Part shown: positions 1,721 through 47,264 of the stretch, in pieces
Numbering within the stretch: the stretch's first letter is position 1
Layout: every line of letters begins with the position of its first letter
The notes under the pieces: model-generated
Database searches by the model: none
What the model saw: the letters and a program-made list of their open reading frames with translations, nothing else
What the model was told of the DNA's origin: nothing
Assembly: GCA_014239265.1 (NCBI GenBank)
Contig: JAAZZH010000002.1
Span: forward strand, 49,554 to 113,553
Length of the DNA stretch: 64,000 nt
Direction of reading: 5' to 3'
Source: Actinomycetota bacterium
GTDB taxonomy: Bacteria; Actinomycetota; Acidimicrobiia; Actinomarinales; Actinomarinaceae
Made by a program: the position numbers and the translations under genes

Positions 1721-3787
1721 CTAATTTGTTAGTTTTCTTGAAGAGTTCAAGACTACTGAAATACTAGACATAGCCATTGCTAAGGCTCCCAACTTAGGAG
1801 AGATGCTTCCGGCAACAGCAATTGGAATCATAAGACTGTTGTAGACAAATGCAAGAAATAAATTTTGCCTAACCCTTCTACTACTTGTTACGGCTAAATC
1901 TCTTATATTAAGAATTTTTTCAATTCCACCTTCATGAATAACTATATCACTAGAAGCTTGTGCGATTTGGCTACTTATTGAAGTAGTAATGGCAACATCT
2001 GCTTGTTGCAGTGAAGGGGAGTCGTTAACTCCATCACCTATAAAAATAACACCTTCAGTTTCTTGAATAGCCTTCACATGGGCAAGCTTATCTTCGGGAG
2101 CTTGACTCCCTAATGCATTCTTAATACTTAACTCTTTTGCAAGAAGAGAAACTTTCTCTGAGCTATCACCTGATAAAATTAAAATCTCATAGTATTTTTT
2201 AATCTCAGTTATTAAATCTTGATCTACTGTTAAGTCTTCTTCAAGATGAATGTAGGCTTGTTGGTTATCAATTTTTACTTCAAGCACATTCTCGATTTCA
2301 TTTTTACCGACAATGCTAACATCAAGCCCGTTGACTGATCCATGAATTCCAGATCCGATGTCTTCTTTGACATTCTCTGAAGAAAAAAAAGACAAATTTC
2401 TTCTTTCTGATTCTAAGAGTAAACTTTTTGCGATAGGATGATTTGACCTTATCTCCAAGCTTGCAACGTATGATAAAATCTCATTTTCTGATAATTTGGT
2501 ATTTTCGGTGTCTATTTTTTTTATGCTAAAAATGCCAGACGTAAGAGTTCCAGTTTTATCAAATATAATTTTATTTATTTTTTTTACGTTTTGTAATTTA
2601 TCAAAATTTTTAAAAAGAAATCCATCTCGATAACCCAAGGTGGAAGCTTTATATAATGTTATCGGAGTGGCTAAGCCTAGTGCACATGGGCAAGCAATTA
2701 CTAGGACAGAGATTGCGATTTCTAATGATCTCATCAAATCAGTACCTTCTAATAAATACCGATACAAAAAAGTAGACATACTTAAAAGAAGAATTCCTGG
2801 AACGAAAAATTGAGTTATCCTATCAAGAGTTTTTTGAATAGATGGAGTTGAAGATTGTGCCTCTAAAATAAGTTGTTCTATAAAGTCATATGTCGAAACA
2901 CCTCCATCTTTAACTTCAACTTCTATATATCCATCTAAATTAATACTTCCAGCCAGAACACCATCTCCGGTTTTTTTATTAATTGGCTTTGACTCACCTG
3001 TAAGGAAGTCTTCATTAGTGGAGGAGGATCCAGCAGTAATAATTCCGTCAATCGGAATAATTTCACCTGGAGAAACGCCAATAAAGTCTCCACCATTTAA
3101 ATCTGATACTTTCTTCACCATAATCTTTCCATTGGATAATAATTTGGCATATTGGGGCTTCGAATTTTTAATTGCTTCAGATACATCGATAGAGTTTTGT
3201 ATTGAAATATCTTCAACTGCCTTACCAAATAGTACAAATGAAATTATGTAAGCTCCTGCATCAAGGAACATATCACTATTGCTAGAGGGGAGAAGAGAGA
3301 CTGCAACAGAACTTAAGCTTCCAAGAGATACCAGTGTGTCCATATTAAATTCAAAATGAGATATTTTTCTAACTGCTGAAATATGAAAACGTCTACCGAA
3401 TAGAAATATGACGGTGAAACCGAGCAAATATGCTAAAAATGAATTATTAGCATTAAACGCTTGAGAGACACCTACGGAGAAAGCTAGGGAAGAAAAAGGT
3501 ATAAGGAAAGTTTTACTGTAGTTTTCTTTTTCAGGAACTTTATTATCTGTAACTTTTGCTGAGTACCCAATAGCACTAATTTTTTCTATAACTTTATCAA
3601 CATTAAAATCTTTATCAGATTTAATTACTGCCTTTTTTAAAGGAAAATTTACAGAAACTGATTCTATTGATTCATTTTTCGATATGACTCTCTCTATTCT
3701 TGCAGCACAGGCCGCGCAAGTCATACCATCTAGGTCGAGTGATACTGTATTGCTATTTTGAGACAACAGAGTAGCCTTGTTCGTCAA
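1721..3787 (-). CDS. copA: Copper-translocating P1B-type ATPase
   Basis: N-terminal HMA domain GMTCAACAARIE, membrane CPC motif (VIACPCALGLATP), phosphorylation site DKTGTLT, SNHP and GDGVNDSP motifs. TTG start; overlaps copZ by 35 nt, so the exact start is uncertain. Confidence 0.9.
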   Translation of the reverse strand: MTNKATLLSQNSNTVSLDLDGMTCAACAARIERVISKNESIESVSVNFPLKKAVIKSDKDFNVDKVIEKISAIGYSAKVTDNKVPEKENYSKTFLIPFSSLAFSVGVSQAFNANNSFLAYLLGFTVIFLFGRRFHISAVRKISHFEFNMDTLVSLGSLSSVAVSLLPSSNSDMFLDAGAYIISFVLFGKAVEDISIQNSIDVSEAIKNSKPQYAKLLSNGKIMVKKVSDLNGGDFIGVSPGEIIPIDGIITAGSSSTNEDFLTGESKPINKKTGDGVLAGSINLDGYIEVEVKDGGVSTYDFIEQLILEAQSSTPSIQKTLDRITQFFVPGILLLSMSTFLYRYLLEGTDLMRSLEIAISVLVIACPCALGLATPITLYKASTLGYRDGFLFKNFDKLQNVKKINKIIFDKTGTLTSGIFSIKKIDTENTKLSENEILSYVASLEIRSNHPIAKSLLLESERRNLSFFSSENVKEDIGSGIHGSVNGLDVSIVGKNEIENVLEVKIDNQQAYIHLEEDLTVDQDLITEIKKYYEILILSGDSSEKVSLLAKELSIKNALGSQAPEDKLAHVKAIQETEGVIFIGDGVNDSPSLQQADVAITTSISSQIAQASSDIVIHEGGIEKILNIRDLAVTSSRRVRQNLFLAFVYNSLMIPIAVAGSISPKLGALAMAMSSISVVLNSSRKLTN

Positions 3788-4017: not shown

Positions 4018-4212
4018 TTAAGCAGTTTCTTGTAGAATACGTCCTCTTACTCTAGGGTATTTTACGGGAGCGTGATTAAAACAATGATCTCTTTTGTTAT
4101 ATATGCTAAGTTTTGTGCTGCATGATTCGTCTTTGCACACTCTGCCTTGGTCAAAACTTTTAGAAGGCCTTATACCGCCTTTAATTTGACTTGCTTTTAG
4201 TCCGTCAGTCAT
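4018..4212 (-). CDS. Small basic Cys3-His protein (C-x4-C-x12-C-x2-H), function unknown; paralog of 27572..27775
   Basis: 64 aa, AAGGA Shine-Dalgarno upstream of the ATG. Shares GRVC..SC.T..SIYNK...CF.H.PV.YPRVRG with the ORF upstream of dnaK. Shared residues use different synonymous codons (GRVC = ggc aga gtg tgc here, ggt cgt gtt tgt there), which indicates protein-level selection. Confidence 0.7.
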   Translation of the reverse strand: MTDGLKASQIKGGIRPSKSFDQGRVCKDESCSTKLSIYNKRDHCFNHAPVKYPRVRGRILQETA

Positions 4213-6221: not shown

Positions 6222-6458
6222 ATGGATATCAAACTTGAATTTTGTGTAGTTTGAAACTACACACCTCGTGCAGTTAGTACGATTGAAGACATTTTAGAAA
6301 AATACGGACAAAAAGTTAAATCAATAAATTTGATTCCCGGATCAGGTGGGGTATTTGAATTTTATTTGAATGGAGAATTAATTTACTCCAAGCTTGAAAC
6401 CGGAAGACATACTGAAGAGGGAGAGATACTAAGTCTCATAGAAAAAGCACTTAGTTGA
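6222..6458 (+). CDS. SelW/Rdx-family selenoprotein (78 codons, Sec encoded by TGA 6252-6254)
   Basis: Not in the ORF track. Encodes MDIKLEFCVV-U-NYTPRAVSTIEDILEKYGQKVKSINLIPGSGGVFEFYLNGELIYSKLETGRHTEEGEILSLIEKALS. The TGA is at the second position of the Rdx CxxC/CxxU redox motif, and the frame stays open 67 codons beyond it. Hairpins surround the TGA. Confidence 0.8.
6243..6275 (+). promoter_or_regulatory. Candidate SECIS-type RNA structure(s) around the SelW-like UGA
   Basis: Perfect 9-bp stem TGTGTAGTT(6243-6251)/AACTACACA(6255-6263) with TGA as the 3-nt loop. Mutually exclusive alternative: AACTACAC(6255-6262)/GTGCAGTT(6268-6275), 7 of 8 positions paired, 5-nt loop ACCTC. No energies computed. 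Confidence 0.4.
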
Positions 6459-7189
6459 ACATTCCTTTCGATCTTTCAATTTTTGAACTATTTTTTATAG
6501 CACTGTTGTTATTTATTTCCTCATCTGTCCAAGGTGTTCTTGGATTTGGTTTCGCAGTCATTGCATCACCAATTATTGTCCAAATAGAACCTGCCTTAGT
6601 TCCTCAGCTACTTTCTCTTTTGGGCCTTCCTTTAGCATTAAGACTTTTTATTAGAGAAAAATCGAAAGTTAACTGGAAACCCATGAAATTTCTTATTGGT
6701 GGAAGAGTTATAGGTGGACCAATTGGTTTGCTATTCCTAACAACATTAGACCCAAATTTACTATCAATTTCTGTGGGGGTAATAGTACTAAGTGCTGGAC
6801 TCGGTTCGTATTTTGGTTGGAATGTAAAAAGAAACTCTATGAATTCACTTCTTGCAGGTACTTTTTCAGGAATATTTGGGATGATTGCTGCAATCGGGGG
6901 TCCACCTGTAGCAATTTTATATAGAGGAACTAAAGGAAGTGAATTTAGACCTTCTCTAAATGCTGTTTTTACCTTAGGAATACTGATCACTCTTTCTCTA
7001 TTGGCATTTACTGGAAATTTTGTACAAGACCACTTGGTTTTGTTTATGTATCTTGTTTTACCAGTTTTACTTGGGGTACGATTTTCAAGCCTACTATTTT
7101 CCAAGGTGTCAGATAAACTTATTGCCGATATGGTAACTTACTTTTCTATATTTTCAGGAGGAGTTGTAATCTTTAGGGCATTATTTTAA
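6455..7189 (+). CDS. TSUP (TauE/SafE) family anion permease
   Basis: 244 aa polytopic membrane protein with repeated glycine-rich helices (GVLGFGFAVIASP, IAAIGGPPVAILY) typical of the TauE/SafE family. TTG start overlaps the SelW-like stop by 4 nt. Confidence 0.75.
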   Translation: MNIPFDLSIFELFFIALLLFISSSVQGVLGFGFAVIASPIIVQIEPALVPQLLSLLGLPLALRLFIREKSKVNWKPMKFLIGGRVIGGPIGLLFLTTLDPNLLSISVGVIVLSAGLGSYFGWNVKRNSMNSLLAGTFSGIFGMIAAIGGPPVAILYRGTKGSEFRPSLNAVFTLGILITLSLLAFTGNFVQDHLVLFMYLVLPVLLGVRFSSLLFSKVSDKLIADMVTYFSIFSGGVVIFRALF

Positions 7190-27571: not shown

Positions 27572-27775
27572 TTAAATTTTTGGTTCTTGTTCTCTTGACA
27601 AATGTCCTCTAACCCTTGGATAGGAGACTGGAGAATGCAAGAAGCAATACTTTTTCTTGTTATAGATACTTATTTGAGTTTCACAAGATGAAAACTCACA
27701 AACACGACCAGATGTATATTTTTTTGATCGCCTAACTCCAGGTTTTACTGAAGAAGCTGTTAATGTACCACTCAT
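27572..27775 (-). CDS. Small basic Cys3-His protein (C-x4-C-x12-C-x2-H), first ORF of the dnaK operon; paralog of 4018..4212
   Basis: 67 aa, AAGGA Shine-Dalgarno. 34 nt upstream of dnaK on the same strand. Shares the GRVC..SC.T..SIYNK...CF.H.PV.YPRVRG core with the copper-locus paralog. Confidence 0.7.
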
Positions 27776-27938: not shown

Positions 27939-28718
27939 ATGGTTAATTTGGATATTCATATTGTTGGTGTTGGCAACCTTGGTTCATCATTATCAAACGG
28001 TTTAAATAACCTTAAAGATGATTTGAACATATACCTTTATGATCAAAATCCTGAGTCTTCGCCCTTAAAAAATTCTCATATTATGAATGAAATTAGTGAT
28101 ATCAAAGAAGGTGTTTTAGTTCTCTGTATAAAGCCTAAAGATATAAAACAGTTTATTAAATTAAATTCCCATAAAATTTCGGAAAATGTTCTTATTTGCA
28201 CGGTCTTAGCAGGTGTCGAAATAACTTACTTCCAAAGATACTTTAACAATAAAATAATTCGGTTAATGCCAAATTTATCAATTAAGGCAAACAATGGTTT
28301 TATTCCATTTACCAAAAATTATCAAGAAGACTATTTATCATTTCTTGAAGTTCTGGGGGGCCTTGGGACTATTGCAGAATATGATGAAAGTCTTTTTCAC
28401 ATAATAACCTCGGTTTTTGGAAGTGGTCCAGCTTGGTATTTGGAATTGTCATCAAAAATAGTTCAGGCAGCAGAGCTCTTAGGTTTAGATAAATCAGAAG
28501 CAAATAAAATAATTAAAGAGTTAGTTAAATCACTACCATCATTTATTTCTGATGATGAATTTAGTTCAACTGTAGATAAAATAAAATCACCTAACGGAAC
28601 TACTGAAGCCGGACTGAATTCGCTTGTTAACGATTCTTTTGATAAAATTATTTACAATGCAATTGAGTCTGCCACAAATAAATCACAACAAATTTCAAAT
28701 GAAATAAACAATGATTAA
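27939..28718 (+). CDS. proC: Pyrroline-5-carboxylate reductase
   Basis: 259 aa. N-terminal Rossmann motif IVGVGNLGSSL and C-terminal SPNGTTEAGL signature. Confidence 0.8.
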   Translation: MVNLDIHIVGVGNLGSSLSNGLNNLKDDLNIYLYDQNPESSPLKNSHIMNEISDIKEGVLVLCIKPKDIKQFIKLNSHKISENVLICTVLAGVEITYFQRYFNNKIIRLMPNLSIKANNGFIPFTKNYQEDYLSFLEVLGGLGTIAEYDESLFHIITSVFGSGPAWYLELSSKIVQAAELLGLDKSEANKIIKELVKSLPSFISDDEFSSTVDKIKSPNGTTEAGLNSLVNDSFDKIIYNAIESATNKSQQISNEINND

Positions 28719-30870
28719 TCAAAAAAAGCCAAAGCAAGTTAACGATTATGTCCTTTTATTTTCTGCTGGAAGTGCTGTTGGCACCTTATTTCTTTGGGCT
28801 GCAAGCTATATATTCCCAGAAGGAGATATTGTTGAAGGCAGAAGAGTATTTGAGAATATACCTAAATATTTACAATATGCTTTTTATCTATTAAGTGCAT
28901 CATCCGTATTTATAAGTGGATATCTTTTTTCATTAAGAGCAAAAAACTGGGCTCGTGGCACAAGTGAAAAAAGAAAGACTACTCTTGTATCTAAACTGAA
29001 GAACTTCTTTGATGGAATTCTTATGCGAACTGTTCTGAGATTCCGCGCAGCAGGATTAATGCACTCAATGATCTATGTTGGCTTTTTGGGTTTATTTGCA
29101 GGTACTATTACATTAGAGATTCATCATTTATTGCCACCATCTATGAAGTTTCTACAGGGCACAACTTATTTTGTGTATTCTTTTTCACTAGAAATAGCAT
29201 CTCTAATATATCTAGCTGGAATTGGTTGGGCTTTACTCAGAAGAATTTTTGGAACTGAATTCAGAATTAAAACTAAAACAAAAATGGATGATTTTTTGAC
29301 GCTTGGACTTCTAGGTTTTATGGGTCTTTCTGGATTAACGACTGAAGCTGGAAGAATAATTGTTGAGGGCTTTCCTGAGTATGAAAAATGGAGCTTTGTT
29401 GGATATTTCATAGCTGATATTTTACCAATTGAAAATGGTGTTCTCTTTCACAGAATATCTTGGATACTCCATGTTATTTCATTTTTTGTCTTTTTAATCG
29501 TACTACCTCAATCAAAGCTTAGACATATCATTACCTCTCCTGTAAATATGTTTCTTAGTCCAAAAGATAGACCCAAAGGAGCAATGAAAGACATAGGAAA
29601 TCTTCTCGAGGCAGAAGATATAGATACAGTTGGTGTAGAAGTTGTTGAAAACTTCTCATGGAAGCAACTTGTTGATCTTGATGCTTGCACTGTCTGTGGA
29701 AGATGTACATCTGTTTGCCCAGCTAACTTAACAGGAAAGCCTCTAGATCCTAGAGAAATTATTCTTAAAGTTGGACAAGTCATGTCTGAATCTGGCTCTC
29801 CAGCTGTTCCAGCAACAGTGTCAACACCTATTGATTTACAGGTTAAGACTTCAAATGTATTTGAAAGAATTACATCTGAAGAACTCTGGGCTTGTACGTC
29901 ATGTCGTGCTTGTGACGAAGTTTGTCCTGTAAACATTGAAATCTTGGACAAAATACTTGATATGAGAAGACATCTTGCACTAATGGCTTCAGATTTTCCA
30001 TCAGAACTTGGAAAGGCTTATGTAGCAATGGAAAATTCATCTAATCCATGGGGTGCATCTCAAAATGACAGAATGAAATGGTCTGAGGGTTTAGAATTTG
30101 AAGTTCCAATGCTGGGAGAAGAAAACAAAGAAGAAGTCGAGTACTTGTATTGGGTCGGTTGCGCAGGAGCATTTGATGACAGAAATGTTCCAGTCACAAA
30201 AGCAGTTGCAACCTTGTTGAAACGAGCAGGTGTTTCCTATGCAGTCTTAGGTCCAAAAGAAGTGTGTACTGGGGATTCAGCTAGAAGAACTGGAAATGAA
30301 TTTGTATTTCAGCAATTAGCTATTCAAAATATTGAGAATATGAATAATCTAAATGTTAAAAAAGTTATTACACAATGCCCACATTGTTTTAATACTATTG
30401 CTAATGAGTATCCTCAGCTCGGTGGTAACTTTGAAGTTATCCATCACAGTCAATTATTAACAGAACTCGTCCAGTCAGGAAAAATTGATGTTGGTACAAG
30501 TGAAGACCCTTATGTAATTACCTATCATGACTCTTGTTATCTGGGAAGACATAATGACATATACACTGCACCTAGGGAGATACTTGGAGCAATAGGAGGT
30601 ATAGAAGTTCGTGAAATGAAACGTCAGGGTACTAATAGTTTCTGTTGTGGAGCTGGTGGAGGAAGAATGTGGATGGAGGAGTCTACAGGAAAAAAAGTTA
30701 ATATTGAGAGATCTGAAGAAGCCATAGAAACAGGAGCCGACGAAGTCGCTGTAGCTTGTCCATTTTGTTATATCATGATGGACGATGGAGTCAAAGAACT
30801 TGGTAGAGGCGAATCTATAAAAGTAAGAGACGTTTCCTTAATACTCTTAGATAATCTTAAAAAAGATTAA
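28711..30870 (+). CDS. Membrane-bound Fe-S oxidoreductase (NarI-like membrane domain + 2x[4Fe-4S] + two CCG domains; HdrD/GlpC-like, Rv0338c-type)
   Basis: Ferredoxin motifs CTVCGRCTSVCP and CTSCRACDEVCP. CCG-domain motifs (YWVGCAG, FCCGAGGG). N-terminal polytopic region. 8-nt overlap with proC. Confidence 0.8.
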   Translation: MINQKKPKQVNDYVLLFSAGSAVGTLFLWAASYIFPEGDIVEGRRVFENIPKYLQYAFYLLSASSVFISGYLFSLRAKNWARGTSEKRKTTLVSKLKNFFDGILMRTVLRFRAAGLMHSMIYVGFLGLFAGTITLEIHHLLPPSMKFLQGTTYFVYSFSLEIASLIYLAGIGWALLRRIFGTEFRIKTKTKMDDFLTLGLLGFMGLSGLTTEAGRIIVEGFPEYEKWSFVGYFIADILPIENGVLFHRISWILHVISFFVFLIVLPQSKLRHIITSPVNMFLSPKDRPKGAMKDIGNLLEAEDIDTVGVEVVENFSWKQLVDLDACTVCGRCTSVCPANLTGKPLDPREIILKVGQVMSESGSPAVPATVSTPIDLQVKTSNVFERITSEELWACTSCRACDEVCPVNIEILDKILDMRRHLALMASDFPSELGKAYVAMENSSNPWGASQNDRMKWSEGLEFEVPMLGEENKEEVEYLYWVGCAGAFDDRNVPVTKAVATLLKRAGVSYAVLGPKEVCTGDSARRTGNEFVFQQLAIQNIENMNNLNVKKVITQCPHCFNTIANEYPQLGGNFEVIHHSQLLTELVQSGKIDVGTSEDPYVITYHDSCYLGRHNDIYTAPREILGAIGGIEVREMKRQGTNSFCCGAGGGRMWMEESTGKKVNIERSEEAIETGADEVAVACPFCYIMMDDGVKELGRGESIKVRDVSLILLDNLKKD

Positions 30871-32907: not shown

Positions 32908-34617
32908 GTGAATACAAAAACCATAAGATTAACCGGTGCCCAACTTTCTTTCTCTGTGGGAGCTATTCAGGAAAACAAAACCAAAATTCTAAATACTCTA
33001 GAGGAATCCGAAAAAATACAATCTGACATTGTTATTTTTCCTGAACTTTCAATAACTGGATATCCTCCGGAAGATTTACTTCTAAGAGAAAGTTTTGTGG
33101 GTAAAAACTTTGCAGTATTAGAAGAAATAGCAGAATTTTCTGGTGCAACCAGTGCAATAATTGGTTTTGTTGATAGAAGTTTAGATGAAAATTCTACGGA
33201 CAATTTTGAAAGAAAAATCTCAAACGCCGCAGCTATTGTTCAAAATGGAGATGTAAAAGGTATCTACCATAAGTGCTTTCTTCCAAATTACTCAGTTTTT
33301 GATGAAGCAAGATATTTCTCAAAAGGAAGTAAACCAGCAGATTTATTTTGGTATGACGATGTAGCTATTGGAATTAATATTTGTGAAGATATTTGGATTG
33401 ATAATGGCCCAGCGGACCTTCAAGTTAATGCTGGTGCATCAATAATTGTCAATATTAATGCTTCACCATTCGATATTAATAAATCTAATTCACGAAGAAA
33501 ACAAGTCGCAGAAAAAGCCAAGAAGTTAAATGTTCCAATAATATACTTAAATATGGTTGGAGGACAAGATGAACTTGTTTTTGATGGCGGTTCTTTTGTT
33601 GTAAATGCATCAGGTGAAATCATTTATCAAGCGAGTCAATTTCAGGAAGAAGTGTTTTCATTCGATCTAGAAGTACAGGTGAAAGATATAATTTCTGATT
33701 CAAAACTTACTTTGAACACAAAAAAAGATTCTATTCCAGAATTACAGTCTCATAAAACTTTTAATGAACTTGAGTCAATGTATGAGGCTCTTAAATTAGG
33801 TGTTGCTGATTATGTACAAAAAAATAACTTTCAAAAAGTTCTAGTTGGGCTTTCAGGAGGAATAGACTCGGCCCTTACAGCTACAATTGCGGTCGACGCA
33901 CTGAGTTCAGAAAATGTTATAGGAATAGCAATGCCTTCAAAATATAATCCAGACAGCTCACTTGAGGATGCAAAAAATCTGGCTACAAACTTGGGTATAG
34001 AATTTAAAATTATTGAAATTGAGGATACTGTAGAAACACTAAGAACTCTTTTAAAAACTACACTTGAGGAACCACTTGCTGGTGTTACCGATGAAAACAT
34101 TCAATCAAGGATAAGGGGAAATATAATTATGGGTCTCTCAAATCAACTAGGGGCAATGGTATTATCAACTGGGAATAAATCTGAGATGGCTGTTGGGTAT
34201 TCCACATTGTATGGTGACCTAGCAGGAGGATTTGCACTACTTAAAGATGTATATAAAACTGAAGTATATAAACTTTCCGAATTTCGAAATGAAGAATCAA
34301 TCGTAATTCCACTAAATTCTATTAGTAAAGAACCCAGCGCAGAACTAAGCGACAATCAATTTGATTCCGACTCCCTTCCTGACTATGAATTACTGGACAA
34401 AATATTAAAAATGTATATTGAATCTGACTTTTCTTCTGAAAAAATAATCGCTTCAGGAATTGAAAGCAACATTGTATATGACGTGTTAGAAAAAGTTGAC
34501 AAAAATGAATATAAAAGGAAACAAGTTGCACCTGGAGTAAAATTAACAGAAAGAGCTTTTGGCAAAGATAGAAGAATGCCAATTACTAATACGTATATAA
34601 GAGAAAGATATTTATAA
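32908..34617 (+). CDS. nadE: Glutamine-dependent NAD+ synthetase
   Basis: N-terminal CN-hydrolase domain with intact Glu/Lys/Cys motifs (VIFPELS, YHKCFLPNYSVFDE, NICEDIW). C-terminal PP-loop GLSGGIDSAL. Confidence 0.9.
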   Translation: MNTKTIRLTGAQLSFSVGAIQENKTKILNTLEESEKIQSDIVIFPELSITGYPPEDLLLRESFVGKNFAVLEEIAEFSGATSAIIGFVDRSLDENSTDNFERKISNAAAIVQNGDVKGIYHKCFLPNYSVFDEARYFSKGSKPADLFWYDDVAIGINICEDIWIDNGPADLQVNAGASIIVNINASPFDINKSNSRRKQVAEKAKKLNVPIIYLNMVGGQDELVFDGGSFVVNASGEIIYQASQFQEEVFSFDLEVQVKDIISDSKLTLNTKKDSIPELQSHKTFNELESMYEALKLGVADYVQKNNFQKVLVGLSGGIDSALTATIAVDALSSENVIGIAMPSKYNPDSSLEDAKNLATNLGIEFKIIEIEDTVETLRTLLKTTLEEPLAGVTDENIQSRIRGNIIMGLSNQLGAMVLSTGNKSEMAVGYSTLYGDLAGGFALLKDVYKTEVYKLSEFRNEESIVIPLNSISKEPSAELSDNQFDSDSLPDYELLDKILKMYIESDFSSEKIIASGIESNIVYDVLEKVDKNEYKRKQVAPGVKLTERAFGKDRRMPITNTYIRERYL

Positions 34618-34620
34618 AAA

Positions 34621-35448
34621 GTGTATCTAATTAATGGTATAGAAGTTAGTAAGGATAACTTTAATACGCCAATAGAAAGCCTCTCTTTTTGGAGAGGAGA
34701 TGGTATTTTTGAAGCTATCCGTATTCATAATGGTTTTCTTTTTGCAGTAGACAGACACCTTAAACGTTTTGAAAGATCCGCTAATAAGATGTTATTCAAG
34801 AATATTGATTTTAACTCTATAAAGAAAGATCTTATAAAATTAGCCTCAAACTTTACTGAGGGTTACGTAAGGGTAATAATAAGCCGATCCGAGACTGTTG
34901 AAAGTTATGATGTCTATATGTTCCATCAAAAACCGGTAGACATTCCAGAAAACTATTCCCTACAGACACAATTAAGCCCATGGCATCCTGGGGGTGATTT
35001 TCTACTAGAGGAAAATCAGATTATTGGCACAAAGTCAACTTCCTATGCTTTGAATGTTACTCAGACACGCTTAGCTGAACAAAATGGCTTTACAGATGCC
35101 TTACTCTTAAATCGAAACAATATAATCCTTGAAGGCCCCACATTTTCTCTTGGGTGGATAAAGGATGATACAGTTTATATTCCTGATTTAGACTTAGGAA
35201 TACTTGATTCGATAACAAGACAATACATCAATCTTTTTGGAGCTAAAGGACAGTTAAACGTCATAGAAAGTCGGATAACTGCTGATGAGATTTATGAAAT
35301 GGATACAGTTTTTGTGTTATCCACAGCTAAACATGGAAAATTTGTAAATAAAATCGATGAAAAAGTGTATGAACAAAGCCCGGTATTGAAACTAATACAA
35401 GAATGTTTCATAGAAGAAATAGAAGCTGAAAAGCAAATTAGTAATTAG
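34621..35448 (+). CDS. Class IV (fold type IV) aminotransferase / aminodeoxychorismate-lyase-like
   Basis: 275 aa. RGDGIFEAIRI and HLKRFERSA motifs typical of the IlvE/PabC/Dat family. GTG start 3 nt after the nadE stop. Confidence 0.75.
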   Translation: MYLINGIEVSKDNFNTPIESLSFWRGDGIFEAIRIHNGFLFAVDRHLKRFERSANKMLFKNIDFNSIKKDLIKLASNFTEGYVRVIISRSETVESYDVYMFHQKPVDIPENYSLQTQLSPWHPGGDFLLEENQIIGTKSTSYALNVTQTRLAEQNGFTDALLLNRNNIILEGPTFSLGWIKDDTVYIPDLDLGILDSITRQYINLFGAKGQLNVIESRITADEIYEMDTVFVLSTAKHGKFVNKIDEKVYEQSPVLKLIQECFIEEIEAEKQISN

Positions 35449-35460
35449 GTGGGAGGTGTG

Positions 35461-36489
35461 ATGAGACTGACTGAGTATTCTCGTGGATCTGGTTGAGCTT
35501 GTAAACTATCACCTAGTGAGCTTGCACAAGTTTTGTCGCAATTTAAAAATCATAAAGCCTTATCTGCCAGCAGTGTATCTGTAGGTTTAAACAACCCCGA
35601 TGACGCTGGAGTCGTAAGAACTAGTGGTGAAAATCTTATCCAATCTATAGATTTCTTTACTCCAATTTTAGATAATCCTTATGACTGGGGCAGAGTAGCA
35701 GCCGCAAATGCATTATCTGACATCTATGCCATGGGTGGAGAGCCTCTGTCGGCTTTACAGTTAGTTTGTTGGCCTAGAGACCATATTAGTTTTGATATTC
35801 TAGGAGAGGTTATTAGAGGTGGATTAGATGTCATGGAGCAAGCTAAATGCTCGGTGATAGGAGGACACAGTATTGATGATAATGAACCTAAGTACGGCTT
35901 TTCTGTAACAGGAGTAGCAAAAGAAAGAGTCTTTCTAAACAATACAATTAAAGATGGCGACAAGTTATTTTTATCTAAACCACTGGGTACTGGTGTAATA
36001 TCAACCGCAATTAAAAAAGGTAAAGCTAGCTCTGAGATAATTAATAAAGCTACAACAGTAATGACGACTTTGAACAATTCTGCTGCTGACGTTGCCCATA
36101 AATATAATGCAAATGCAGTAACTGATATTACAGGATTTGGGTTATTCGGTCATTTGAGTGAGATGTTAAAAAATACAAATCTTGGAGCAAACATTTATAG
36201 TAAAAACATCCCTGCAATTGAAGGAGTTCAAGAACTAATTCTGAACGGCTTCTTTTCATCAGGAAGCCAAAGAAACCTTGACCATGTTAAAGAATTGATA
36301 ATTGACAACGCATCAGACCAAAACCTTATAAAGCTTTGTTGTGATGCTCAGACAAGTGGGGGTTTACTTATTGCTGTACCAAAAGACCAAAATATTGACA
36401 TTGTAGAGATTAAAGAAAGTATGGGTTTGGAACTTTGGGAAATAGGTGAAATAAATACTGACTATATCGAAAAGATAAATATTATTTAG
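35461..36489 (+). CDS. selD: Selenide, water dikinase (selenophosphate synthetase), itself a selenoprotein (Sec at TGA 35494-35496)
   Basis: GGAGG 35452-35456 then ATG 35461: MRLTEYSRGSG-U-ACKLSPSELAQVL..., in frame with the 318-aa ORF the track starts at TTG 35533. The TGA falls at the catalytic Cys/Sec of the N-terminal G(C/U)xCK loop. AIR-synthase-like body (DDAGV, DIYAMGG). Confidence 0.85.
35497..35531 (+). promoter_or_regulatory. Candidate SECIS element downstream of the selD UGA
   Basis: Lower stem GCTTGT(35497-35502)/ACAAGT(35526-35531), 6 bp including one G-U. Upper stem TCAC(35509-12)/GTGA(35516-19) with loop CTA; apex about 18 nt after the UGA. Not energy-evaluated. Confidence 0.35.
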
Positions 36490-36494
36490 TAATA

Positions 36495-37415
36495 ATGATT
36501 AAAAAATTAACAAAATATTTTGCTTTCGCTACTTTGTTGAAAAATTTAATTGGCACTAAAAAAGCTCAGACCGAGGGCTTAACTCAAATTCACCCAACAA
36601 AAATACCTGGGAGAACAGTTTTTGTGCGAGAAAAAGAATACTTTATTCGTGAATCTTACGTAGGTAACACAATCCCAATTATCTTTCTACACAGTTGGGG
36701 CTCTGACTCACTAGGAAGTTGGTTTAAAATTCTCCCTTTCTATGAAGAAAAAAATTCTTTTGTAACAATCGATATGAAAAATCACGGAAAATCTGACTCA
36801 AGTTGGAAGAGGTGGGATGTTGATGAAAACGCAGATGTAGTAATCAGCATATTAGATCAACTAGACATAGAGAAATGCAATATAGTTGGATGGTCAATGG
36901 GAAGTGCGGTAGCACTTAGCATTTCAAGGAAGAAGAGAGAGCTTGTAAATAAAATGGTTCTCATTACACCATTTAGTTGGCTCGGAGGTGCTGTATATAA
37001 AGATAAACCCCTCTTTAAATTTTTTGTAGCAACGGTGAGAATCAGAGAGAGATTATTTCCAAACATGAATCCAAAATCTAAATATTCACATTTACGTAAA
37101 ACTGGTGCATTGGGAAATGAATACACTGACTGGGCCTGGAATAATTTACATAAATCTAAAGACGACTTCATATATGAGGATGGTGGAAGATATGTTGTGC
37201 CATACGATGCAAGACCCTGGTTAAAAGAAATTGATACAGAGACATTAGTCATCACGGGTGGAAAAGATAATTTAGTGCCTGAGGAGACTTCTCAAGAAGT
37301 TATAAAAGATCTAGCAAATGTAAATGAAATAATCTTTGATAATGCAGCTCACTCAATTCCATGGACACATGACGAACAATTATTAATTGAATTAGACTCT
37401 TTTTTTAAAGAATGA
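36495..37415 (+). CDS. Alpha/beta-fold hydrolase
   Basis: 306 aa. Nucleophile elbow GWSMGS, HSWG oxyanion region, C-terminal His (AAHSIPW). Confidence 0.7.
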   Translation: MIKKLTKYFAFATLLKNLIGTKKAQTEGLTQIHPTKIPGRTVFVREKEYFIRESYVGNTIPIIFLHSWGSDSLGSWFKILPFYEEKNSFVTIDMKNHGKSDSSWKRWDVDENADVVISILDQLDIEKCNIVGWSMGSAVALSISRKKRELVNKMVLITPFSWLGGAVYKDKPLFKFFVATVRIRERLFPNMNPKSKYSHLRKTGALGNEYTDWAWNNLHKSKDDFIYEDGGRYVVPYDARPWLKEIDTETLVITGGKDNLVPEETSQEVIKDLANVNEIIFDNAAHSIPWTHDEQLLIELDSFFKE

Positions 37416-38542
37416 AGAATGTACTTTTCATAGCTCCTACAACTTACAAACTTCCTCTTGATAAGAATATGCGTAAAAAATTTGAGTACTTGTCAGAAAT
37501 TTCCAATCTAAATGTAATTGCATTTGCAAATGAAAAAAAAGAAATGAATTTGGAGAATGCGAACCTTTACTTTTTCAAGAAAACAAAAAGCCGATTTTAT
37601 AATTATTTAAAGATAATGGTAGTTTCTTTGATTTCTATGAGGAAAATTATAAAAGATAACAATATAGAAATAGTCTGTTTTCAAGATCCAGTATCAAGCT
37701 TTCTTTCAATGCTGATTGTGAAAAAGAGATATAAAAGCATCAAAGTAATTGTAGAAACACATGGGGATTTTATAGAAACTCTTGGCTTAGAAAAAAACTT
37801 ATTATTCCCGAGTCTATACAAATATGTCTTCCAAAGGTTATCAAGATATACGATTCATAATGCAGATATTATTAGGGCAGTGTCATCCTCAACTGAAGCT
37901 CAGGTAAGAAAAATAAATAAGTCAAAAACTATCGTACGCTTTCCGGCTTGGGTCGATTTTGATGACTTTAAAGATATTAAAATTAATAGAGATAAAGATT
38001 CAAAATTTCGAATCTTATTCATAGGAAGTGTGACAGATAGAAAAAAGCCTCATTTAATTGTTGAAGCATTAAATTCTATTAAAAAAGAAAATGTTGAACT
38101 TTTAATTGTAGGGCCAACACCTAATTCCAAATATTTAGAAACTTTAAAAAACTTAATAAGTGAATATGCCTTAGACGACAATGTTAAATTCTTTGGAGAA
38201 GTAGACAGGGAAAGGGTAAAAAGTTTTTATTCTGAAATTAACTTAATGATTTTACCATCTGTATCAGAGGGTCTTGCAAGGGTTATATTTGAATCACAAG
38301 CTACGGCCTGCCCCGTTCTGGTAACCGATGCACCTGGCATGGGGGATATTGTTATAGAAGGTCAGACTGGCTATATCTTTGAAAGCAACAGTATCGAAAG
38401 TTTAGCTACAAAGATAAACCAAGTCGAAGAAAATTATGAAGAGGCGAAACACATAGGCACTAACGCAAAAGATTTTATTCTAAAAAACTATTCAACAGAA
38501 AACTTTAAGTTTAGTTTTAAAAAGATTTTCGATAGCGTTTAA
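37412..38542 (+). CDS. Glycosyltransferase, GT4 family (GT-B fold)
   Basis: 376 aa. C-terminal EX7E-type region (PSVSEGLARVIFESQATACPVLVTD). ATGA overlap with the hydrolase gene. Confidence 0.75.
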   Translation: MKNVLFIAPTTYKLPLDKNMRKKFEYLSEISNLNVIAFANEKKEMNLENANLYFFKKTKSRFYNYLKIMVVSLISMRKIIKDNNIEIVCFQDPVSSFLSMLIVKKRYKSIKVIVETHGDFIETLGLEKNLLFPSLYKYVFQRLSRYTIHNADIIRAVSSSTEAQVRKINKSKTIVRFPAWVDFDDFKDIKINRDKDSKFRILFIGSVTDRKKPHLIVEALNSIKKENVELLIVGPTPNSKYLETLKNLISEYALDDNVKFFGEVDRERVKSFYSEINLMILPSVSEGLARVIFESQATACPVLVTDAPGMGDIVIEGQTGYIFESNSIESLATKINQVEENYEEAKHIGTNAKDFILKNYSTENFKFSFKKIFDSV

Positions 38543-38598
38543 GACATCTAACAGCCAATTTTATAAAAATTGTCCACTGTTATTGCTATTCTTGAATC

Positions 38599-39621
38599 AT
38601 GGACATTGTACTTTATATAGTAAACATTATTCTTATGGCTACGGTTGTGTATTTTGTTACACGAAAAGAAGAGGTGCCAGAAAAAGATGATGAGTATCTA
38701 ATAAAGGGAATAGTCAGTGAGTTAATTGAAAATGAAGAATCTCAGATTTATAAGCTGTTAGATAAATCAGATAAAACTGTAAAAGATTTTTTAGAAAAAA
38801 CAGGTGAGATTAAAAGTTCAATATCTGGTGTTGATCAACAAACTAGAAACCTTATATCGGTACTAAATAACAACCAGAGCAGGGGACAGTGGGCTGAATT
38901 CCAAGTTGAAGACTTATTAGGAATCATGGAATATAAAGATGGAATACATTACGAATCCCAAAAAATTATGAATAGTGGAACAAAGCCGGACTTCACATTT
39001 TATTTACCAGATAATAAAACAATCAACATGGATTCAAAGTTTCCACTAAATCTATACATGCAGCTCTCTAAGCTAAATTTAGATTTAGAAGATGAGACCC
39101 TTGATGAGATATCACGCAAGCAAATCACTGAAAGCATAAAAACAAAAAACCGAGAATTTATTGATAAAGCAATTAAAACAAAAATTGATGAAACTTCAGG
39201 TAGAGAGGGATATATTTCAGCCGAAGAGGACACTGTTGACTTCGTCCTGATGTACATTCCTCTTGAAAACTTATACCACTTTTTACTTACTTCCGAAATC
39301 GGAGCAGCCAGAACTCCAGTAATACAATATGCCTTTTCAAAAAAAGTAATCCTAGTGAGTCCTCAAACACTCATGGCTTATCTAGAGACTATTAGGCATT
39401 CGATGAAGCTATTCAGTCTTCAAACTGACACAAAAAATATCCTTCTTGCTCATGAAAAAGTTAAAAGTGAAGTCAATAAATTTATCGATTCATTTGATGA
39501 AGTTACAAAACGGTTAGATCAAACAGTTGATTCATTTGAGAAACTAAAAACTACAAGGAAAAATAAATTAGAAAAATCTTTCGACGAATTAAATCAAGTT
39601 AATAAAAATAGCGAGGGCTAG
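38599..39621 (+). CDS. rmuC: DNA recombination protein RmuC
   Basis: 340 aa. N-terminal TM anchor, coiled-coil region, RmuC nuclease-like core (RGQWAEFQVEDLL ... PDFTFYLPDNKTINMDSKFPL ... DFVLMYIPLE). Confidence 0.8.
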   Translation: MDIVLYIVNIILMATVVYFVTRKEEVPEKDDEYLIKGIVSELIENEESQIYKLLDKSDKTVKDFLEKTGEIKSSISGVDQQTRNLISVLNNNQSRGQWAEFQVEDLLGIMEYKDGIHYESQKIMNSGTKPDFTFYLPDNKTINMDSKFPLNLYMQLSKLNLDLEDETLDEISRKQITESIKTKNREFIDKAIKTKIDETSGREGYISAEEDTVDFVLMYIPLENLYHFLLTSEIGAARTPVIQYAFSKKVILVSPQTLMAYLETIRHSMKLFSLQTDTKNILLAHEKVKSEVNKFIDSFDEVTKRLDQTVDSFEKLKTTRKNKLEKSFDELNQVNKNSEG

Positions 39622-45440: not shown

Positions 45441-47264
45441 ATGGCAAAAGAAACTATTAGAAATATTGCAATCATCGCACATGTTGACCATGGAAAAACA
45501 ACTTTAGTTGACGGACTTCTACAGCAAAGTGGGACATTTAGCGATCATCAAGTATTAGAAGATAGAGTAATGGACTCAGGAGATCTTGAAAAAGAAAGAG
45601 GCATTACCATAACCTCAAAAAATACAGCAATTCACTATAACGATATAAAAATTAATATTGTAGACACCCCAGGCCATGCTGATTTTGGTGGAGAGGTTGA
45701 AAGAAGTCTTAATTTAGTCGATGGAGTACTTCTCCTGGTTGACTCCAGTGAGGGTCCGTTACCTCAAACAAGATTTGTTTTAAAAAAAGCACTAGAAAGA
45801 GATTTACCCGTAATTTTGGTAATCAATAAAATTGACAGACCAGATGCTCGAATTGATGAGGTAGTAGAAGAAGTATATGATTTGTTCATTGATTTAGATG
45901 CAAACGATAAACAGATAGAATTTCCAATTCTCTACACGAATGCAAAAGATGGTATTGCTCATGAGTCTTTAGGTGATGAGTCAAACGATCTAATTCCATT
46001 GTTAAATTTAATAACTACTTTTTTTAGTGGGCCCAATACAGATGACTCCCTTAGTCCACAATTTTTAGTAACCAACCTTTCTTATGACTCCTATGTCGGT
46101 CAGGTTGCCATAGGGAGGTTAGACAACGGAATACTTGAGATGAATAAACAATATAGTTTATGCGGAAAAGAACAAACAGTAAATAATCAAAAGTTTTCAG
46201 CTATGTATACATTTAAAGGCCTTGAAAAGGTAAAAGTCGACACACTTGAATCAGGAGACATAATTGCTATTGCCGGTATAGATAATGTACAGATTGGCGA
46301 CACCATTTCCAGTAATGAGAATCCAAACCCTCTTCCAAGAATTGAAATTGATGAACCAACAGTCTCAATTTTTTTCCATGTAAACAATGGACCATTTGCG
46401 GGTAGAGAAGGTAAATATGTAACCTCAAGAAATATCAGTGACAGGTTACAGAAAGAAATCTTAAGTAATGTATCTTTACAAATTATCCCAAGTGAGAAAA
46501 CAGATGTTTTTGAGGTTAGGGGTCGAGGAGAGCTTCAAATGGCAGTACTAATTGAAACCATGAGAAGAGAAGGATATGAGTTTATGGTTTCTAGACCTGA
46601 AGTCATCGTTAAAGAAATTGATGGAAAAAAAAGTGAACCTATGGAAAAAGTTTTTATTGATACGCCCGAAGACTATGTAGGCGTAGTCACAGAAAAGCTT
46701 TCTAAGAGAAAAGGCAAAATGACAAATCTCATGAATAATGGTTTTGGAAGAGCAACTCTTGAATTCTCGATTCCCTCTAGGGGCTTAATTGGTTTTAGGA
46801 ATCAATTCTTAACAGATACAAGAGGTTCAGGCATAATGAACTCTTTATTTGATGGCTACGCACCATGGGCTGGTGAAATACCTCAAAGAACAAATGGAGT
46901 ATTGATTTCTGATAGAAATGGAAAGGTCACCCCTTACGCAAGTCTTGCAATGGTTGACAGAGGTATTCTTTTCATCCCTCCAGGTACAGAAGTATTTGAG
47001 GGAATGATTATCGGAGAAAGAAATAATGAAGGCGATTTAGAGGTAAATATTACAAAAGAAAAGAAACTTACAAACCATCGCGCGTCAGGATCAGATGAAA
47101 CAATCCCACTTAGACCCCCACAACTAATGTCTTTAGATCAGTGCATAGAATTTATTTCAGAGGGTGAGTTTGTAGAAGTCACACCAGAGTCAATAAGATT
47201 AAGAAAATCTGAACTTAATGCTACCCAACGTGCATTAAATAAAAAGAAAGAGAAAACCAGATAA
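45441..47264 (+). CDS. typA: Translational GTPase TypA/BipA
   Basis: 607 aa. G1 AHVDHGKTT, G3 DTPGHADF, G4 NKID, EF-G-like domain layout. Confidence 0.95.
   Translation: MAKETIRNIAIIAHVDHGKTTLVDGLLQQSGTFSDHQVLEDRVMDSGDLEKERGITITSKNTAIHYNDIKINIVDTPGHADFGGEVERSLNLVDGVLLLVDSSEGPLPQTRFVLKKALERDLPVILVINKIDRPDARIDEVVEEVYDLFIDLDANDKQIEFPILYTNAKDGIAHESLGDESNDLIPLLNLITTFFSGPNTDDSLSPQFLVTNLSYDSYVGQVAIGRLDNGILEMNKQYSLCGKEQTVNNQKFSAMYTFKGLEKVKVDTLESGDIIAIAGIDNVQIGDTISSNENPNPLPRIEIDEPTVSIFFHVNNGPFAGREGKYVTSRNISDRLQKEILSNVSLQIIPSEKTDVFEVRGRGELQMAVLIETMRREGYEFMVSRPEVIVKEIDGKKSEPMEKVFIDTPEDYVGVVTEKLSKRKGKMTNLMNNGFGRATLEFSIPSRGLIGFRNQFLTDTRGSGIMNSLFDGYAPWAGEIPQRTNGVLISDRNGKVTPYASLAMVDRGILFIPPGTEVFEGMIIGERNNEGDLEVNITKEKKLTNHRASGSDETIPLRPPQLMSLDQCIEFISEGEFVEVTPESIRLRKSELNATQRALNKKKEKTR

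Follow-up and report, generated by a model that had tools for sequence, protein, structure and literature searches.

The window analysed here, a stretch of 64,000 nt on the forward strand of contig JAAZZH010000002.1 (GCA_014239265.1, positions 49,554 to 113,553), derives from Candidatus Actinomarina of the order Actinomarinales, with a low genomic G+C content (~0.34). On its plus strand, selD lies in a tight run of genes assigned by Pfam, consisting of a glutamine-dependent NAD synthase (NAD synthase/CN-hydrolase; 32908-34617), a class IV aminotransferase (34621-35448), selD (35461-36489), an alpha/beta hydrolase (36495-37415) and a GT4 glycosyltransferase (37412-38542). Successive genes are separated by gaps of 3, 12 and 5 nt as far as the hydrolase gene, which is overlapped by 4 nt by that of the glycosyltransferase; the order and spacings (3, 12, 5 and -4 nt) set out in an earlier note on this DNA are borne out by the coordinates and Pfam matches. 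On the same contig, 29 kb from selD, is a SelW-like/Rdx gene on the plus strand (6222-6458) encoding 78 aa with the motif CVV-U, in which Sec11 would be specified by TGA 6252-6254. The truncated product called for this gene matches Pfam Rdx and its TGA is conserved among relatives from many phyla, and the SelW-like call that the earlier note had used as cross-support therefore corresponds to a real gene.

The selD frame opens at ATG 35461-35463, runs across a TGA at codon 12 (35494-35496) and remains open until TAG 36487-36489, spanning 342 codons that would encode 342 residues including Sec12. A Shine-Dalgarno box (GGAGG, 35452-35456) is located 4 nt upstream of this start codon. The ORF list instead begins the gene 72 bases downstream at TTG 35533-35535, the codon for Leu25 and a spurious start also chosen by many gene callers, which gives a product of 318 aa and has no Shine-Dalgarno box before it. 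Missing from this product is an N-terminal segment of 24 codons (35461-35532) containing the Sec/Lys loop GSG-U-ACK, and the read-through protein begins MRLTEYSRGSG-U-ACKLSPSELAQVL. The sequence confirms the earlier observation that the listed ORF starts at TTG 35533 while its frame extends through the TGA to an ATG preceded by GGAGG.

Homology identifies the read-through product as full-length SelD, selenide water dikinase (TIGR00476 / EC 2.7.9.3). It matches the TIGR00476 selD model with 371 bits (cut-off 125), in an alignment that starts at residue 2 of the protein and covers model positions 1-310, and NF002098 with 333.2 bits (cut-off 299), while the called product and its homologs have the PurM-like two-domain architecture of PF00586 (AIRS) and PF02769 (AIRS_C). 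The match to E. coli SelD (PDB 3u0o) extends across residues 1-331 (E = 5e-75), and in this phmmer alignment residue 1 of the protein falls on chain residue 6, so that U12 lies opposite Cys17, and K15 opposite Lys20, in the E. coli GAGCGCK loop. In the Aquifex aeolicus enzyme (2yye), the segment aligned to GSG-U-ACK is SSGCAAK. Further downstream, DDAGV, IDFF, SDIYAMGG and TDITGFG, which we take to be Asp-containing ATP/metal-binding motifs, align with DDAAV, TDFF, SDIFAMGG and TDVTGFG in E. coli SelD. The earlier proposal that restoring the N-terminus recovers SelD's catalytic loop is upheld by the U12/K15 correspondence and by a TIGR00476 match that starts at model position 1, with the loop encoded by 35461-35532.

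Conservation and decoding of the TGA codon

The window locus was compared with 43 selD loci, each from a distinct GTDB species of Actinomarinales, drawn from single-cell genomes and metagenome-assembled genomes (MAGs) produced by different groups. The related SelD proteins share 57-99% identity, and TGA occupies codon 12 in 43/43 loci, with a Cys form found in none of these species-level loci. Every locus also has the peptide [MLV]RLT[EQ][YF]S[HR]G[SA]G ahead of the TGA and, 4-5 nt before the start, a box reading GGAGG or GGGGG; the start is TTG or GTG in 28 of the 43. Wherever enough flanking sequence was available, the NAD synthase and aminotransferase genes upstream are unchanged in order and spacing, and the synteny with the hydrolase and GT4 genes downstream is kept. 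Among codons 2-11 of the related loci, all ten third positions are variable, as compared with three first positions and two second positions, a pattern indicating that purifying selection acts on the codons upstream of the UGA.

These data bear directly on the reading of the TGA as a true stop, by which the protein would be the 318-aa product from TTG 35533 and the 33 nt upstream would be non-coding or encode a leader peptide. TTG 35533 or a similar downstream start is used in the ORF list and in 52 of the 120 nearest entries in the databases; however, a protein starting there lacks the Sec/Cys17-Lys20 loop, whose alignment partner in the solved SelD structures is the catalytic loop, and the Shine-Dalgarno box is strong before ATG 35461 and absent before TTG 35533. 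The protein-level conservation and synonymous drift of the 11 codons upstream of the TGA across 43 species, together with the position of TTG 35533 inside a conserved hairpin stem described below, also argue against this reading, which we consider highly improbable.

An organism-wide change of genetic code would instead make the TGA a standard codon for Trp (code 4) or Gly (code 25) and place that residue at position 12. The low G+C content is in line with such a change, and many short contigs have been called with code 4, giving GSGWACK in 68 database entries. Against it, TGA terminates 11 of the 54 long ORFs in the window, several of them where genes overlap in the usual ATGA or TTGA manner, and under code 11 the long ORFs are uninterrupted by TGA; apart from selD, none of the other long ORFs in the window has a plausible TGA-crossing or N-terminal extension. 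An enzyme with Trp or Gly in place of the catalytic Cys/Sec would not be functional, and a tRNA-Sec with a UCA anticodon is reported from every complete genome of the genus (bioRxiv 10.64898/2026.04.03.716425). The stop-codon usage effectively refutes TGA as a standard amino acid codon here, and the chance that the code has changed is vanishingly small.

It is equally hard to credit that selD is a pseudogene, or that faulty sequencing or assembly has turned a Cys codon (TGC or TGT) into TGA, a reading that has nothing in its favour beyond the in-frame stop itself. The 318-aa downstream product recurs in identical form in 337 indexed blocks of the collection, and the 24 contigs that were read and the three places shown stem from independent samples. 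The TGA recurs in 43/43 species, in single-cell genomes as well as MAGs from different groups, and selD is otherwise intact and under purifying selection. The recurrence in independent assemblies refutes both a pseudogene and a sequencing error.

Candidate SECIS elements

Two mutually exclusive folds downstream of the UGA were evaluated as selenocysteine insertion sequence (SECIS) candidates using dinucleotide shuffles, synonymous-codon randomisation, slid controls and RNAalifold consensus. The best-supported candidate, from an RNAalifold consensus of 18 distinct sequences, is the plus-strand hairpin 35522-35541, UUGCACAA-GUU-UUGU(C)GCAA, which has a stem of 8 base pairs, interrupted by a 1-nt bulge at 35537, and a GUU apical loop at 35530-35532, 33 nt 3' of the UGA. 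Pairing is kept in 98.6% of cells, and there are two compensatory pairs, 35526/35536 changing from A-U to U-A and 35529/35533 from A-U to G-C, each a single evolutionary event in one clade. The observed values were matched in 0/500 shuffles, slid controls were paired at no more than 51%, and the probability of all 8 pairs under synonymous-codon randomisation was 0.0004; the stem is built from rare TTG and TCG codons. Base-pairing in this hairpin is under selection, and the hairpin is most likely the site for SelB.

The published bacterial SECIS model (bSECISearch; PMC13188914) calls for a loop of 3-9 nt, a stem of 4-16 bp, a G among the two opening nucleotides of the loop, a spacing of 16-37 nt from the UGA and a minimum free energy (MFE) threshold of -7.5 kcal/mol. 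Hairpin 35522-35541 resembles this model in its 3-nt loop, its 8-bp stem, a loop that opens with G and then U, and its 33-nt spacing. It departs from the model in that this spacing is near the far limit and that the hairpin alone reaches only -4.3 kcal/mol, above the threshold, in an A+T-rich genome; it also follows a second small hairpin and competes with a stabler nested fold. When both hairpin 35522-35541 and the adjacent small hairpin are enforced, the best fold has -7.7 kcal/mol, compared with -9.9 kcal/mol for the competing nested structure.

That structure, the minimum-energy fold on the plus strand (35495-35533), is formed by a helix of 35495-35502 with 35526-35533 around an apical hairpin at 35509-35519 (UCAC-CUA-GUGA), and it could itself be the functional SECIS, leaving hairpin 35522-35541 incidental. 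In addition to being the MFE structure in the window, it has counterparts that are the MFE folds of most relatives, and all 16 of 16 distinct sequences are stabler than their own synonymous randomisations (mean z = -1.44). Its arrangement resembles that of E. coli fdhF, and the apical hairpin lies 11-12 nt from the UGA, equal to the SelW-like SECIS hairpin; the E. coli minimal SECIS is found at this same distance. In some clades the apical hairpin is kept despite amino-acid changes, for example as CUCGC/GCGAG or CUCUCC/GGAGAG. However, its loop (CUA, ACCAA or CAA) lacks G at both of its opening nucleotides in every clade and so fails the bacterial SECIS rule, its register moves between clades with 80% of cells paired and no same-register covariation, and the outer helix varies among clades as well. 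In the window lineage the apical hairpin is at chance level (P = 0.27), and the z-scores of the fold are -0.33 against dinucleotide shuffles and -1.24 against synonymous-codon randomisation. This fold also leaves unexplained the compensatory synonymous changes at 35529/35533 and the rare TTG and TCG codons of the other stem. We regard it as unlikely, though by no means negligible, that the UGA-adjacent fold is the functional element. A stem-loop candidate following the UGA, as put forward in the earlier note, does exist, but it is unremarkable as a minimum-energy fold and hairpin 35522-35541 is better supported.

The SelW-like gene provides a point of comparison within the same genome and, as a second selenoprotein gene with a CxxU motif and a covarying hairpin, a separate indication that Sec is used. 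Its SECIS hairpin on the plus strand (6266-6282, UCGUGC-AGUUA-GUACGA) is 100% paired, with a compensatory change from U-A to C-G, and its AGUUA loop is similar to the (A)GUU(U) loop of hairpin 35522-35541. The distance from UGA to SECIS loop is 17 nt in the SelW-like gene versus 33 nt in selD. A Rfam scan of the window returned a single tRNA and no SECIS family, which is unsurprising given how poorly Rfam models bacterial SECIS elements. Between Actinomarina and other phyla, the AGUU loop of the SelW-like SECIS differs in codon register, so that a codon-based alignment of this element would not be structurally consistent.

Selenocysteine machinery and relation to known Sec-SelD

Selenocysteine-containing SelD was reportedly described in Haemophilus influenzae by Guimaraes et al. 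in 1996, a study cited in the 2026 preprint, and the Sec type has been a known form of the enzyme since that year; in Aquifex aeolicus SelD (PDB 2yye/2zod/2zau) the corresponding residue is Sec13. The window SelD is like these bacterial Sec-SelD proteins in belonging to TIGR00476 with a PurM-like AIRS/AIRS_C fold, and in that its UGA, followed by x-x-Lys, occupies the site of E. coli Cys17 within the glycine-rich N-terminal loop. Its identity with E. coli SelD is ~42% by tblastn and, judged by eye, similar with the Aquifex enzyme. The G-U-A-C-K of the window has a Cys two residues past the Sec, as in E. coli C17-G-C19-K, whereas the Aquifex loop reads G-U-A-A-K. A further difference is the host, which here is a marine, aerobic photoheterotroph of ultra-small size.

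Taken together, it is very probable that selD of Candidatus Actinomarina is in the selenoprotein form, with its UGA decoded as Sec, although insertion at codon 12 itself is something we infer from sequence. Translation would start at ATG 35461, UGA codon 12 would be decoded with Sec-tRNA(Sec) brought by SelB, and the ribosome would read on to the TAG ending at 36489, producing a SelD of 342 residues whose flexible N-terminal loop, GSG-U-ACK, is predicted to hold the catalytic Sec (~E. coli Cys17) and Lys (~Lys20). SelB would most likely be recruited by the in-CDS mRNA hairpin 35522-35541 through its GUU loop past the UGA, with the small hairpin 35509-35519 occupying the space between.

The genes for Sec insertion are not found near selD. 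No selA, selB or tRNA-Sec was found within the 64-kb window or, in the 43 genomes, within the 10 kb flanking selD on each side, and the 10 kb to the left of the window contain no sel genes, judging by the Pfam labels of called genes only. ARAGORN detected no tRNA-Sec in the window and the 43 loci, and NCBIfam searches of 20 large window ORFs identified no SelA or SelB, with ORF 45441-47264 assigned to TypA/BipA. With E. coli SelA and SelB as queries, tblastn of the window and of loci L001-L046 produced TypA cross-hits only, and tblastn against plasmids recovered only distant Cys-type selD genes. In the preprint "Actinomarina, resolved" (bioRxiv 10.64898/2026.04.03.716425), selC, selA, selD and a divergent selB are reported in 84/84 complete Actinomarina genomes, and on this basis selA, selB and selC are presumably present in the genome of the window. 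The earlier note had regarded an absence of Sec-insertion genes from a closed genome as counter-evidence; the outcome is favourable according to these published genomes, rather than our own data. SelD contains Sec in every Sec-decoding bacterium without FdhA (PMC1794560).

Sec-type selD in Actinomarina is already known and conceptually not new, because the same preprint of April 2026 names it, describing a Sec-form selD with an "MRLT* prefix, 342-346 aa" and a deep-Sep prediction. The preprint assigns the Sec form to about half of the genomes and presumes the rest to be Cys, whereas TGA is invariant across the species compared here; it reports no SECIS with Rfam models, whereas a comparatively supported candidate hairpin is described here. 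The abundance of Sec-type SelD in marine metagenomes has been known since at least 2008 from GOS data, in which SelW-like (427 sequences) and SelD (357) are the most widespread selenoprotein families of the ocean surface (Zhang and Gladyshev 2008, PMC2398784). Those Sargasso Sea and GOS reads were without organism assignment, whereas the SelW-like and SelD pair is placed here in Ca. Actinomarina. The additions to prior knowledge are small, namely the TGA without any Cys form in 43 of 43 species, the SECIS candidate and a systematic mis-annotation in databases.

The need of SelD, which makes the selenium donor, for Sec, and the lack of any Cys copy seen in the clade, would make the Sec pathway dependent on itself. 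A broader reading, which we offer tentatively and do not ourselves favour as a whole, is that SelD in Actinomarinales is Sec-only with no Cys back-up and that selenium assimilation is obligately self-dependent, operating by way of a weak, distal tandem SECIS; the GUU-loop hairpin, missed by standard SECIS models, may in this joint proposal accompany the divergent SelB of the genus. If true, obligate self-dependence would occur in a free-living ocean bacterium that ranks among the smallest and the most abundant. A streamlined marine actinobacterium of ~1 Mb appears to invest in a Sec system whose selenium-activating enzyme is itself Sec-dependent, and a Sec-dependent SelD in Actinomarina would bear on the selenium demand of surface-ocean picoplankton.

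Public databases represent this protein incorrectly throughout its nearest neighbourhood. None of the best 120 database proteins has Cys at residue 12; 68 have W at this position as a result of code-4 translation, and the other 52 are truncated. Truncated database entries include ones of 317-318 aa that start with MSQFKN or MKQFEQ. The closest 120 public proteins thus include no correct entry, with 52 lacking the catalytic loop and 68 bearing a spurious Trp, and because the entries are truncated or Trp-bearing, pipelines that use them misdescribe the enzyme and undercount selenoproteins.

The selD reading frame and its catalytic loop

The selenophosphate synthetase gene selD lies on the positive strand at 35461-36489, starting with an ATG (35461) behind a Shine-Dalgarno sequence GGAGG (35452-35456), crossing an in-frame TGA at 35494-35496 and staying open from that codon to a TAG stop (36487-36489). 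Translated with the TGA as selenocysteine (Sec, U), the product is MRLTEYSRGSG-U-ACKLSPSELAQVLSQFKN..., 342 residues in length. An earlier note had claimed that selD is itself a selenoprotein whose N-terminus is cut off in the ORF list, and the ATG, the GGAGG and the frame across the TGA are all present in the sequence as it described; the mechanical ORF list does start the gene at TTG 35533, for a product of 318 aa.

The read-through protein scores 371 bits against TIGR00476 (cut-off 125), with model position 1 falling on protein residue 2. Its best match among solved structures is E. coli SelD (3u0o, E = 5e-75), which aligns from residue 1 and pairs U12 with Cys17 and K15 with Lys20 in its GAGCGCK loop. 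Aquifex aeolicus SelD aligns at the catalytic loop via SSGCAAK, and the window protein also has the Asp-containing motifs DDAGV, IDFF, SDIYAMGG and TDITGFG. By sequence comparison, the predicted product with the TGA read through is full-length SelD. The A. aeolicus SelD structures are of a Sec13 enzyme. The loop alignments to the E. coli and Aquifex proteins indicate that 35461-35532 encodes the catalytic loop and that the 318-aa ORF is without it, bearing out the proposal that the restored N-terminus is the catalytic Cys/Sec loop, so that the alignment check named in the note comes out in its favour.

The in-frame TGA and proposed Sec decoding in Actinomarina

TGA is a normal stop codon in the window, ending 11 of the 54 long ORFs (TAA 30, TAG 13), and no other long window ORF has a credible extension across a TGA. 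Reassignment of TGA to an amino acid under genetic code 4 or 25 is therefore ruled out.

A scan of GTDB species representatives yielded 43 distinct selD loci, nearly all labelled Actinomarina, Actinomarinales or Acidimicrobiia, with 57-99% protein identity to the window SelD; the closest is the single-cell genome AG-313-L19 (99%), and the source organism is Candidatus Actinomarina, order Actinomarinales. Codon 12 is TGA in 43/43 loci, each with the preceding peptide [MLV]RLT[EQ][YF]S[HR]G[SA]G and an SD box 4-5 nt ahead of the start, which is ATG in 16, TTG in 18 and GTG in 10 of the 44 sequences including the window. Within codons 2-11, all ten third positions vary, as opposed to three first and two second positions, and six of the ten codons vary only synonymously; this dominance of third-position variation shows that the segment ahead of the TGA is translated. 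An identical 318-aa downstream product has index entries in 337 blocks of the assembly collection. Those of its contigs that were read derive from independent samples, TARA among them, and an assembly error or pseudogene is excluded. Three short contigs with the typical Actinomarinales selD cluster (L022, L026 and L045) bear the MAG labels Methanosarcinales archaeon, Methanobacteriota archaeon and Melainabacteria, probably through mis-binning.

The neighbours and spacings that the earlier note listed were likewise recovered: a NAD synthase/CN-hydrolase gene (32908-34617), a class IV aminotransferase gene (34621-35448), selD, an alpha/beta hydrolase gene (36495-37415) and a GT4 glycosyltransferase gene (37412-38542), separated by gaps of 3, 12 and 5 nt and a 4-nt overlap. 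Wherever the flanks of the 43 loci reach far enough, this order and spacing is kept. Near-identical gene spacing was observed over the region corresponding to window 32908-39621 in the related loci (L004-L046), with RmuC next after GT4 in most. The April 2026 preprint 'Actinomarina, resolved' (bioRxiv 10.64898/2026.04.03.716425) reports that no gene adjacency is universal within the genus.

Among the 120 closest proteins of the public collection, neither Cys nor U occurs at the Sec position. Trp stands there (GSGWACK) in 68 entries of 340-350 aa because gene callers used code 4 on low-GC contigs, and the N-terminal loop is absent from the other 52, most of which begin MSQFKN or MKQFEQ and have 316-319 aa, with a few shorter fragments. 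The N-terminus is thus wrong in all 120 entries.

Genes for tRNA-Sec, selA and selB were not found in the 64-kb window, in the 10-kb flanks of selD from the 43 genomes, or, going by Pfam labels of called genes, in the 10-kb stretch to the left of the window. The ORF at 45441-47264 is TypA and not SelB. According to the preprint, all 84 complete Actinomarina genomes have selC, selA and selD together with a divergent selB, and about five selenoproteins each. Absence of the Sec-insertion genes from a closed genome had been named as evidence against the Sec reading, and this published count, which is not our own computation, answers the point in its favour.

The selD observation is thus confirmed and its Sec interpretation supported. 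Sec-type SelD is a classical case (Guimaraes et al. 1996, cited in the preprint), found in all Sec-decoding bacteria without FdhA (PMC1794560), and no selenoproteins are more widespread in ocean metagenomes than SelW-like proteins and SelD (PMC2398784). Since the preprint also gives the Sec form explicitly for Actinomarina ('MRLT* prefix, 342-346 aa'), the finding is correct but already known. The preprint infers a Cys form for about half of genomes, whereas here all 43 species have the TGA and the 120 closest proteins include no Cys form, a small addition; beside the preprint's lower Sec-form count, we note that 28/43 loci start with TTG or GTG.

SECIS candidates downstream of the selD UGA

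The minimum-energy fold after the UGA is nested, with an outer helix pairing 35495-35502 with 35526-35533 and an apical hairpin at 35509-35519. The stem-loop proposed in the earlier note exists as this fold, but its energy of -9.9 kcal/mol is unremarkable (z = -0.33 against dinucleotide shuffles and -1.24 against synonymous-codon randomisation), and the comparative signal lies instead at 35522-35541. The nested fold shows no same-register covariation in its apical hairpin and no G in the first two apical loop positions in any clade, and we consider it a live but rather doubtful candidate for the functional SECIS.

RNAalifold on 18 distinct sequences identified the hairpin 35522-35541, UUGCACAA-GUU-UUGU(C)GCAA, with 98.6% of cells paired; none of 500 shuffles reached the observed values, and slid controls were at most 51% paired. 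Pair 35526/35536 is A-U in the window clade and U-A elsewhere, and pair 35529/35533 alternates between A-U and G-C through two synonymous changes. With amino acids fixed and window codon usage, all eight pairs formed in 0.04% of trials, and the stem is built from rare codons (TTG, 9% of Leu; TCG, 5% of Ser; ACG, 5% of Thr). The 3-nt loop with G then U, 8-bp stem and 33-nt spacing fit the bacterial SECIS model of PMC13188914 (UGA spacing 16-37 nt). The hairpin alone is worth -4.3 kcal/mol, less stable than the model's threshold of -7.5 kcal/mol; with a small upstream hairpin the best fold reaches -7.7 kcal/mol. The loop context A-GUU-U resembles both AGUUA of the SelW-like SECIS in the same genome and AGUUU of SelW-like genes in other phyla. 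Support for 35522-35541 is real but thin, as the two compensatory changes represent one evolutionary event each, and we lean modestly towards this hairpin as the likely SelB site. It adds a concrete selD SECIS candidate to a gene for which Rfam models had given no SECIS.

The SelW-like gene and other window genes

The SelW-like/Rdx gene (6222-6458, positive strand) encodes 78 aa with the motif C-V-V-U, its Sec11 corresponding to TGA 6252-6254. Gene callers leave only a 42-aa Rdx fragment, and this truncated product is matched by Pfam Rdx. The TGA is kept in homologs of many phyla, and the SelW-like call that the earlier note links with selD is real. Seventeen nt after the UGA, the hairpin 6266-6282 (UCGUGC-AGUUA-GUACGA) is 100% paired across 12 distinct Actinomarina sequences, with a compensatory U-A to C-G change and one pair going from G-U to G-C. 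The gene is a second predicted selenoprotein gene of the window and a separate line of evidence that this genome decodes Sec. Given its matching length, the 'uncharacterised 78-aa' family that is the most abundant among the selenoproteins of the preprint is probably SelW-like/Rdx, a further small addition.

The Sec-UGA itself forms the apical loop (3 nt) of a hairpin with 9 bp (6243-6263, positive strand; UGUGUAGUU-UGA-AACUACACA) directly 5' of the SECIS hairpin. Its helix is 92.9% paired in 14 distinct Actinomarina sequences, with one compensatory G-C to A-U pair, and the two-hairpin region has an energy of -16 kcal/mol (z = -2.19). The AGUU loop of the SelW-like SECIS (6272-6276) is 4 nt nearer the UGA in Actinomarina than in other phyla, with loop codons GCA-GUU-AGU as against AGU-UUG (AGUUU) in those phyla (window compared with loci L086-L130); the loop motif is retained and its codon context shifted. 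The TGA stop of this gene overlaps the TTG start of a TauE-family gene (6455-7189) as TTGA.

Two paralogous small Cys-rich ORFs on the negative strand (about 4018-4212 and 27572-27775) encode called products of 64 and 67 aa with no Pfam match, both of which contain the motif C-x(4,5)-C-x(3)-[IL]S-I-Y-N-K-x(4)-C-x(2)-H-x-P-V-x-Y-P-R-V-R-G. Weak matches far under cut-off were seen between the 719-aa CCG/4Fe-4S (HdrD-like) protein (28711-30870, positive strand) and NCBIfam 'diclust_near_Sec', and between the N-terminal HMA domain of a copper P-type ATPase (1721-3787, negative strand) and 'UxxU_metal_bind (seleno)protein'.
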